Shown in pieces: positions 24,915-25,610 of a stretch of DNA of 64,000 nucleotides. The notes beneath the pieces were generated by a model, which saw nothing but the letters and a program-made list of their open reading frames with translations, did not search any database and was not told where the DNA came from. A program made the position numbers and the translations under genes. This DNA comes from an uncultured Oscillospiraceae bacterium. GTDB lineage: Bacteria; Bacillota; Clostridia; Oscillospirales; Ruminococcaceae. Every line of letters starts with the position of its first letter. Within the stretch, counting starts at the first letter, position 1. The stretch spans positions 45,347-109,346 of the forward strand of contig CAZSIV010000002.1 in NCBI GenBank assembly GCA_964607135.1, given 5' to 3'.

Positions 24915-24943
24915 TTGCAAATTCTTCCAAAATATGATATAAT
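24915..24943 (+). promoter_or_regulatory. Near-consensus sigma-A promoter
   Basis: TTGCAA (24915-24920), a 17-nt spacer, then TGaTATAAT (extended -10, TATAAT at 24938-24943). Confidence 0.6.
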
Positions 24944-24949
24944 AGATAT

Positions 24950-25510
24950 AGAAAAAGAAAAACCCCATTAGCTGGGAAACGGACGGCAATCCGTTCTCAC
25001 TAATTGAACCGTGTAACCAGCACGTTTCAAAAGCCAACAGGGTAACTTCCTTGTGCTTACCATAACACAAGTTGAGTTAGATTGTCAAGGGCTTGAACGT
25101 GCTACACTCAAAACGTACGTTCAGGCTCTTGCTTTTTGTTCCCGCAACAGAAAGCAGGATCGTGGACGTAGCAACAAACCCAAAAACTCCACGATACGCG
25201 CACCTTGAAAACAAAATAGAGGATTCTGTAATACGTTCCCTGTGTGTCCCCCATCGGGAAAGCCAAGCTGTAAACACGCTCTGCGAACAATGTTCCTACA
25301 GCAAGAAAGGACGATACCCTTTCGGCGACGATCCACACAGAGGGATCATGATACTTCCGTCCAGCCACAGACACAAGCAATGGGGACGGCCCGGTGAGAA
25401 CCACGGGGTAGGAAAGCGCAATGCTTTCACTAATGGAGCTGCTTCATCAACAGCCGTTGCAGAATCCCAATTCAGCAACAAGGTTTTTACCGGTTTCCCG
25501 GTTTTTATAA
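24950..25510 (+). ncRNA. Candidate large structured ncRNA (class unknown; ROOL/GOLLD-like context)
   Basis: About 560 nt with no credible ORF, starting at a strong promoter. Contains many local hairpins and a possible closing helix (24965-24971 with 25430-25436). Ends near a weak hairpin plus T-tract at 25489-25506 and is adjacent to a tRNA gene. The 3' end is uncertain. Confidence 0.35.
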
Positions 25511-25610
25511 AACTTTTTGCGTATACCCATGTTGCACAACCAACGTGGGTATATCAAAGAGCTTTATATACCGAACAATCTGCCCGACCTGCATCGAGCA
25601 GATCATTCGC

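Follow-up and report, generated by a model that had tools for sequence, protein, structure and literature searches.

The 64,000-nt stretch of DNA analysed here (the window), from an uncultured Oscillospiraceae bacterium, contains a structured, promoter-driven non-coding region at positions 24915-25610, directly beside a tRNA-Lys gene. We found that this region carries a member of the pemK RNA family (Rfam RF02913), a motif that appears to coincide with the essential core of canT, the processive antiterminator of Tn916. The window element is a somewhat divergent member of the pemK/canT family, lies on an integrative conjugative element (ICE) unrelated to Tn916, and has an added leader and its own promoter. 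We consider it probable, at roughly 70%, that the region acts as a canT-like cis-acting antiterminator at the end of the ICE.

The region matches the pemK RNA family

Covariance-model searches identified two Rfam matches in the 64-kb window at gathering scores, namely the tRNA and a pemK RNA at 25345-25424 (+). The latter reaches 41.1 bits against a gathering score of 34.8, and model positions 1-61 are fully matched. The conserved 5' sequence of the family, AUAAUGAUACUUCC, followed by three covarying helices, is represented in the window by AUCAUGAUACUUCC and its helices P1-P3. The pemK RNA was described as a cis-regulatory motif with no mechanism assigned (Weinberg et al. 2017), and the window shares with it the sequence AUNAUGAUACUUCC, a P1 with a variable loop, a P2 formed by CCCGGUG-AGAAC-CACGGGG, and P3. 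It differs in that P3 is extended by a 6-bp GAAAGC/GCUUUC helix, that no pemK gene follows, and that the conserved unit is several times longer than the 61 positions of the Rfam model.

The initial annotation had regarded the region as a candidate ROOL or GOLLD RNA and proposed an Rfam search. No match to ROOL, GOLLD, OLE, HEARO or raiA was found at gathering score in the 64 kb, or at E<=10 in 24700-25800 on both strands. The description as a large, structured, promoter-driven non-coding unit of a mobile element therefore stands, and the ROOL/GOLLD identity is replaced by that of a pemK RNA. Apart from an overlap with the dinG RNA (RF03082), the permissive search of 24700-25800 otherwise returned sub-threshold noise. 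The dinG overlap covers 25347-25428 with 22.5 bits against a cut-off of 46.9, and the window is not a member of that family. The dinG model shares AAUGAUACUUCCG...GGCCCG, together with a hairpin, with the pemK core, and the two Rfam families seem to be related within a single class.

The pemK motif maps onto canT of Tn916

Scanning the pemK core pattern in one genome per species yielded 53 loci, nearly all from Clostridia, and the pattern also occurs in two viral contigs. At the 53 loci, the motif lies mostly in the spacer between co-directional genes. The upstream genes tested mostly encode small sigma-70-region-4 or helix-turn-helix (HTH) proteins, and the downstream genes encode PemK toxins (PemK in 6 of the 10 tested), a PemK-Xis fusion (Tn916-Xis) or large serine recombinases. 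Two loci (L031 and L045) have a minus-strand tRNA ~2.2 kb downstream of the motif, past the recombinase gene. A single exact match in L010, labelled as a metagenome-assembled genome of a Thermoplasmatota archaeon, falls inside a 464-aa open reading frame (ORF) and is probably due to chance or mis-binning.

Tn916-like elements have this gene layout at their regulatory and recombination end, and the Tn916 copy on pCF10 (L070) was therefore examined. The pemK model matches it with 55 bits at 2823-2923 (+), between orf8 (stop at 2540) and xis, and canT has been defined in the orf8-xis spacer of Tn916 (Wirachman & Grossman 2024, PMC11658703). canT is a sufficient, cis-acting, orientation-specific and processive antiterminator that requires no other Tn916 gene and lets transcription from Porf7 pass the terminator T1 after excision (PMC11658703). 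Transfer of a canT mutant of Tn916 is regained once the downstream terminators (T1) are removed. Fragments of at least 341 nt (341-452 nt) are active and those of at most 290-291 nt are inactive, and the authors were unable to interpret single-sequence folds (PMC11658703).

The mutation canT(S3), ATA>TGC at nucleotide 283 after the orf8 stop (PMC11658703 coordinates), maps to 2823-2825 of the pCF10 copy; the pemK match opens with these three bases, which read ATA, in agreement with the mapping. The deletion canT(Δ162), nucleotides 229-390, maps to 2769-2930 and removes the entire pemK motif. From S3, Δ162 and the position of the model match, we infer that canT has the pemK motif as its essential core. 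The window holds a core homologous to the S3/Δ162 target, with AUC in place of AUA. PMC11658703 contains no mention of Rfam or pemK, and our literature search found no paper linking the pemK motif with canT.

An extended architecture with a covarying long-range helix

Sequence alignment shows that conservation in the family reaches well beyond the Rfam model, over a unit of roughly 330 nt whose 5' domain is also found in the window. We aligned 430 nt around the core from the window, Tn916 and 30 non-redundant loci, 32 sequences in all, and the window has all 25 columns that are invariant among them. On the 5' side of the core, the family order is block A, reading CACCTTGA(A/C)AACTGAATA...CAGGTAC, then a GAGCG block (a GCG block at 25281-25288 in the window), a sequence-variable hairpin and a nearly invariant GGCGATGA. 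The stem of this hairpin, hairpin C, varies among members (CCGGA/TCCGG, TTGGT/ACCAA, CAACTG/TAGTTG) while GGCGATGA hardly changes. On the 3' side, a hairpin is followed by CGCCTGATGAATTTCCC, and most members add a further hairpin with the loop GGGGTGTCGAGGACAAATA. The stretch 24950-25510 of the window also contains AUCAUGAUAC. The shared elements of the window are listed below.

25201-25234 (+): block A (CACCTTGAAAAC...AATAC), aligned with the consensus CACCTTGA(A/C)AACTGAATAtACAttCATCAGGTAC in the 32 sequences
25238-25246 (+): 5' strand of the long-range helix, CCCTGTGTG, pairing with 25334-25344 (covariation, minimum-energy fold)
25281-25331 (+): block B (CTGCGAAC), hairpin C (GAAAGG 25305-25310/CCTTTC 25318-25323) and the conserved GGCGACGA (25324-25331), from the alignments
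25334-25344 (+): 3' strand of the long-range helix, CACACAGAGGG (covariation, minimum-energy fold)
25345-25424 (+): pemK motif core AUCAUGAUACUUCC with helices P1-P3, the equivalent of the canT part struck by S3 (Rfam, covariation)

The sequence after block A pairs with the sequence before the core in every member, despite differing bases, as illustrated by four of them.

Window: CCCTGTGTG / CACACAGAGGG
Tn916: CGATAAGAA / TTCTTATCG
L004: CCTGCATG / CATGCAGG
L007: TAGCTGACAG / CTGTCAGCCTA

A fixed-register count of this long-range helix gives only 60%, with the register shifting by 0-2 nt. Owing to this variable register, cognate duplexes were tested against permuted ones. For 25 distinct members, the cognate mean is -11.1 kcal/mol against -5.8 +/- 0.5 kcal/mol for the permuted pairs, a value equalled by 0 of 20000 permutations, and the window's own pair reaches -14.1 kcal/mol. 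G.U pairs account for 28 of the 212 pairs of the helix, and the helices are weaker as the opposite strand. In the core helices, 99.1% of the cells are paired across 23 sequences including the window, with compensatory change in 10 of the 14 pairs, and none of 500 shuffles reaches this level. The covariation among homologues that the initial annotation had suggested looking for is thus present.

When the whole region was compared by BLAST with the 53 pemK loci, similarity was confined to the core, and the 5' domain came to light only through a multiple alignment and a sequence profile. With the window and the Rfam core both left out of its construction, a leave-one-out profile of that domain has its best match in the window at 25198-25337 (+), with E 0.0022. 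BLAST of the region against phages gave a single 62-nt match confined to the core, and against plasmids no match. RNAalifold on the MAFFT alignment of the 5' domain returned no structure, because the variable inserts misalign.

The final 19-nt loop of most members, GGGGTGTCGAGGACAAATA (for example in L008, L001 and L016), resembles block A (TTGACAAC..AATA) and does not complement it; this final hairpin is absent from both the window and Tn916. Two GCC-ATGA-type blocks and the CTGA in block A are reminiscent of kink-turn-like GA motifs.

Promoter, coding content and folding

Two features precede the shared domain.

24915-24943 (+): sigma-70-type promoter TTGCAA-17-TGaTATAAT, with a predicted start at ~24950-24952
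24950-25198 (+): lineage-specific 5' leader of ~250 nt with six to seven stable hairpins (fold z-score)

Several details of the initial annotation held up here. The near-consensus promoter it described (TTGCAA-17-TATAAT with TG before the -10) matches 10 of the 12 consensus positions and is unchanged across four related copies (L056, L057 and L060 among them). Promoter-like sites are frequent in the AT-rich spacer (10 against 4.4 expected), so the site would prove little by itself; a metatranscriptome contig starting at 24952 agrees with the predicted start, the contigs carrying no strand. The ~650 nt 3' of the promoter are, as had been stated, devoid of a conserved ORF: the 195-aa frame at 25093-25680 extends into the tRNA gene, and in L056, L057 and L060 indels shrink it to a 131-aa frame with a different start and a different end.

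The stretch 24950-25510 folds on the plus strand with a minimum energy of -189.5 kcal/mol, corresponding to z -7.3 against dinucleotide shuffles, and the minus strand reaches only z -3.9. The G.U pairs and the fold z-scores favour the plus strand. The local stems noted earlier (25131-25155, 25159-25195, 25305-25323 and 25412-25428) are present in the sequence and in the minimum-energy folds, and the hairpin with a T-tract was recovered by a terminator scan (25489-25502 plus a T-run). The proposed closing helix 24965-24971/25430-25436 found no support, since it conflicts with the covarying core helix P3: the CUA inside its 3' arm CTAATGG pairs with the UAG of P3. Furthermore, CTAATTG at 25000-25006 is a nearer partner of 24965-24971 than 25430-25436. 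Another pairing of the minimum-energy fold, 24974-24980/25493-25499, was rejected, as L060 alters the 5' arm without compensation.

The element lies at the tRNA-Lys end of an ICE

The part of the window from 1 to 25610 is the right-hand 25.6 kb of an ICE at the 3' end of tRNA-Lys, and the structured stretch forms its final 700 nt. This part has a GC content of 0.45 inside a host of 0.60 (0.37-0.51 over 1 to ~26000, ~0.60 beyond), with a step from 0.44 to 0.61 at tRNA-Lys. The ICE proteins include a type IV coupling protein (T4CP), a lysozyme/M23 protein, a MobL relaxase, RepA_N, Fic and a tyrosine integrase, and host genes including lepA (LepA) lie beyond tRNA-Lys.

22999-23970 (+): tyrosine integrase (Pfam Phage_integrase, E 6.8e-26), upstream of the RNA and co-oriented with it
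25611-25686 (-): tRNA-Lys(UUU), whose 3' end abuts the ICE and is the integration site (Rfam)

The contigs of related copies break within tRNA-Lys, as expected of an attachment site. The adjacency to a tRNA on which the initial annotation had relied is real, with the tRNA on the minus strand. It results from the insertion of the ICE next to this gene, and so denotes an attachment site and is not a trait of the RNA family here.

The RNA element is oriented toward position 25611, where the ICE is attached. Of the ICE genes, integrase included, all but a 206-aa gene at 24089-24709 (-) are on the plus strand, and relatives carry equally long all-plus gene arrays. Intergenic plus-strand terminators occur within the array at 322-346, 18492-18511 and 24032-24058. 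Outward transcription from the ICE would cross tRNA-Lys antisense and then enter lepA (26041-27849) in sense.

The region is present in RNA libraries

Six mouse-gut metatranscriptomes assemble ~24950-25650 at 93-95% identity and depth 10-48, in the following contigs.

X18: 24693-25683
X19: 24786-25622
X26: 24952-25139 and 25146-25652
X27: 25020-25587
X32: 25056-25624
X34: 25202-25633

In the same six runs, the ICE genes in 1-24000 are at or near zero, the 206-aa gene being exceptional with depth 3-12 in some runs, and in a DNA run the integrase and the RNA region are equally well covered. The signal therefore comes from RNA rather than from residual DNA. The contigs extend 80-150 nt beyond the T-tract at 25506, to ~25590-25650, and stop where shared tRNA sequence starts. 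If plus-sense, this extension past the T-tract hairpin would be an indirect hint of terminator read-through. The expectation of a transcript was thus borne out by the RNA libraries, and that of a discrete 0.55-kb end was not. Raw-read RNA runs with the same organism label contained no reads of the sequence.

A proposed canT-like antiterminator and its alternatives

In the reading that we favour, the strong promoter at 24915-24943 would fire outward, toward the end of the ICE, and produce a non-coding RNA in two parts, a 250-nt lineage-specific leader and then a domain of ~280 nt (25199-25480). By analogy with Tn916 canT, the nascent RNA would fold and render the polymerase resistant to intrinsic terminators. 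From the integrated ICE, transcription would leave through the attachment site and cross the tRNA in antisense. Once the ICE had excised and formed a circle, the polymerase would pass the joint and enter the same-strand maintenance, type IV secretion, relaxase and integrase genes, with terminators between them.

Several observations weigh against this reading. The pemK score exceeds the cut-off by only 6 bits, a profile of the family 3' extension misses the window, and the window lacks the hairpin with the conserved 19-nt loop. Its RNA element comes after the integrase and has its own promoter; other members follow a sigma/HTH gene and precede xis/int. Terminator-like sites across the ICE number 24, no excess over the 21.8 of shuffled sequence. 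The canT system of Tn916 includes an insulating terminator just within the opposite end of that element, and the left end of the ICE, where such a terminator is predicted, lies beyond the window and beyond the reach of relatives; those bearing an AAA_28 gene lengthen the element by more than 8-10 kb, and the left end is still not reached. Finally, the RNA contigs are unstranded, and minus-strand read-through from the strongly promoted tRNA-Lys could yield them.

This last point leads to the main alternative, that the RNA signal is a minus-strand 3' trailer of tRNA-Lys ending at ~24960, with the pemK-like core a relic or inactive here. The tRNA has a perfect TTGACA-17-TATAAT promoter at 25745-25717 (-), and a weak minus-strand hairpin with a T-run lies at 24977-24963. 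The depth of the X26 contigs drops away from the tRNA, from 26.3 (25146-25652) to 3.4 (24952-25139), and the 206-aa gene downstream on the minus strand is weakly expressed. However, the minus-strand hairpin has only 4-5 pairs, and tRNA trailers are usually short-lived. The plus strand has the invariant extended -10 promoter, the better fold z-score, the covarying helices with their G.U pairs and all the family-invariant bases, and a trailer would leave the family membership of the sequence unexplained. We therefore regard a tRNA trailer as unlikely.

A stand-alone small or medium trans-acting RNA ending at 25489-25506, which might for instance regulate or neutralise PemK-type toxins or other genes of the element, would be consistent with the promoter, the terminator-like hairpin and the abundance in RNA libraries. 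The Rfam name itself comes from the pemK toxin genes that often follow the motif, as in 6 of the 10 downstream genes mentioned above. However, no PemK-family match was found among the 20 larger ICE ORFs scanned, small ORFs lying outside the scan; the RNA contigs run well past the T-tract; and canT in trans fails to complement a canT mutant in Tn916 (PMC11658703). This role is very unlikely.

We find it similarly improbable that the region functions as single-stranded DNA in conjugation, as a single-strand origin or a promoter in the recipient, and not as RNA. Its location on a conjugative element and its long, nearly perfect leader hairpins would fit such a role, and the discoverers of the pemK motif state that their method cannot separate single-stranded DNA from RNA structures (PMC5737381). 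However, the homologous Tn916 region works in a chromosomal transcription reporter without transfer, in one orientation only and downstream of a promoter (PMC11658703), the covarying helices retain G.U pairs, and the region is in RNA libraries while neighbouring genes are not. Given the Tn916 experiments, both the single-stranded DNA and the trans-acting roles are unlikely for the family, an argument that does not extend to the leader.

A large ornate RNA like ROOL, GOLLD or OLE would be compatible with the size, the mobile-element context and the neighbouring tRNA only, and with a pemK RNA match in place of theirs its probability is negligible.

Comparison with known systems

The likeness to canT of Tn916 extends from the pemK-motif core (55 bits in Tn916, 41 bits in the window) to the 5' domain, with block A, the long-range helix, hairpin C and GGCGATGA common to Tn916, at least 25 other loci and the window. 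Sizes are comparable, as the active canT fragments of 341-452 nt compare with ~280 nt within a ~560-650-nt transcript in the window. Both lie near the recombinase end and point outward, to genes that are downstream only once the element is circularised. In contrast to canT, which follows orf7/orf8, the window element comes with a promoter of its own and an additional structured leader of 250 nt, stands after the integrase and against a tRNA attachment site (Tn916 is not tRNA-specific), and has a diverged 3' part. The ICE carries a MobL relaxase and RepA_N and is no relative of Tn916, and canT-type activity is a prediction for it.

The conAn system of pLS20 (ConAn1 protein and conAn2 RNA; PMC8191782) is likewise a large leader RNA with processive antitermination of a very long Gram-positive conjugation operon. 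It differs in that conAn needs a PF17362 protein and canT needs no protein of the element; PF17362 was not among the matches of the 20 ICE proteins scanned, a scan that covered small ORFs only partly. The put RNA of phage HK022 and EAR of the Bacillus eps operon act in cis as nascent transcripts and modify RNA polymerase with no dedicated protein, which is the mechanistic class proposed here, but they are unrelated in sequence, much smaller, and found in a phage or a polysaccharide operon. ROOL and GOLLD are large, structured, often on mobile elements and near tRNAs, and differ from the window element in that it has no match to their covariance models.

Leader and 3' hairpins particular to this locus

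No counterpart of the leader was found among the 53 other pemK-motif loci, nor outside four copies that are 93-96% identical. The 249 nt of the leader alone give a fold z-score of -5.6 on the plus strand and -2.8 on the minus strand. Changes among the four copies concentrate in loops, and hairpin 24978-24995 shows two compensatory double changes and one pair broken in L060. The hairpins of the leader and of the 3' part are as follows.

24965-25006 (+): leader hairpin enclosing 24978-24995 (this and the next five from folds)
25010-25026 (+): leader hairpin
25036-25085 (+): leader hairpin
25088-25129 (+): leader hairpin
25131-25155 (+): leader hairpin
25159-25195 (+): leader hairpin
25438-25479 (+): hairpin E (GCTG 25438-25441/CAGC 25451-25454), diverged tail CGTTGCAGAATCCC and window-specific hairpin 25456-25465/25470-25479 (by-eye alignment)
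25489-25506 (+): weak terminator-like hairpin ACCGG-TTTC-CCGGT, then T5 (terminator scan, alignment)
25523-25603: hairpins 25523-25534/25541-25552 and 25578-25583/25598-25603 (variable loop), between the RNA core and the attachment site (relatives)

Hairpin E (25438-25454) and its tail were matched by eye to hairpin E of the family and CGCCTGATGAATTTCCC, and the hairpin at 25489-25506 occupies the place of the hairpin with the conserved loop GGGGTGTCGAGGACAAATA in most members. The 12-bp hairpin at 25523-25552 shows compensatory double changes at 25525/25550 and 25526/25549 in relatives and metatranscriptome contigs. The candidate roles of the hairpins in 25523-25603 are part of the RNA, an arm-site region or a tRNA trailer.

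Within the leader, CCTTGT (25051-25056 region) has alternative partners, ACAGGG upstream or CACAAG downstream, and a U-rich tract comes after the 15-bp hairpin at 25088-25129. A contig of one metatranscriptome stops at 25139, which also falls in a strain-variable, indel-rich zone. The segment 25036-25140 may be an attenuator. The mutually exclusive pairings around 25036-25072 and the 15-bp hairpin with the U-rich tract (25088-25140) also suggest a bolder and rather doubtful scheme, a two-part device in which the leader, as sensor or attenuator, would gate the entry of the polymerase into the canT-like domain. The terminator-proof polymerase would then also leave the integrated element, antisense through tRNA-Lys into host lepA, so that the element would gate its own transfer genes and reprogramme neighbouring host expression.

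Other features of the ICE and the host part

A 27-nt perfect palindrome, AACTTCGTGCAG-ACT-CTGCACGAAGTT, occurs in near-identical copies at 347-386, 24020-24059 and 24817-24856 of the window and at 1443-1469 of the relative L071. All sites are intergenic: 3' of the integrase (with a T-run), ~60 nt upstream of the RNA promoter, right before the ribosome-binding site of the AAA_28 gene and, in the relative, 3' of parB. The recurrent palindrome could be a shared terminator or operator. Relatives that are 88% identical (L071-L076) diverge fully upstream of 389 when compared with window positions 1-388; ahead of the AAA_28 gene they have parA/parB and a 1219-aa SpaA/Cna_B surface protein, they are without the Fic gene, and the cargo of this ICE family is variable.

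Between RepA_N and the Fic gene, 21673-21922 consists of two tandem 125-nt units with 94% identity, which may be iterons or the origin region of the element. A 42-nt stretch at 14550-14591, just 5' of the ORF 14613-15488, has matches on either strand in numerous short, unrelated metatranscriptome contigs and looks like a widespread short repeat. A search for relatives of the 206-aa neighbour gene found none outside its own cluster, and the integrase gave no match in a JGI metagenome search. Contigs with a 60%-identical integrase stop directly after the integrase gene and are hence uninformative on the RNA. The host part contains four tandem ~960-nt paralogous units (60-87% identical) and two ~2-kb units (56380-60073, 41909-45913, 51059-53166), as well as three copies of a 54-77-nt intergenic repeat containing GGCCCGTTCAAACCGCCCCTC.

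Implications

What appeared to be an orphan large RNA becomes an annotated part of a conjugative element, and its adjacency to a tRNA is explained. The pemK motif is widespread in Firmicutes and had lacked a mechanism; its position is that of the essential core of canT, the one RNA of the class defined by experiment. That the motif is the canT core and sits inside a larger covarying architecture is a more useful result than the assignment of the window's own element, and the long-range helix and the conserved blocks provide a comparative structure for a canT-type RNA. The class extends beyond the relatives of Tn916, as it is also found on a MobL/RepA_N element that integrates in tRNA-Lys. If these results hold, conjugative elements of Gram-positive bacteria, frequent carriers of resistance genes, may be controlled in general by terminator-proof transcription that becomes productive only once the element has excised.

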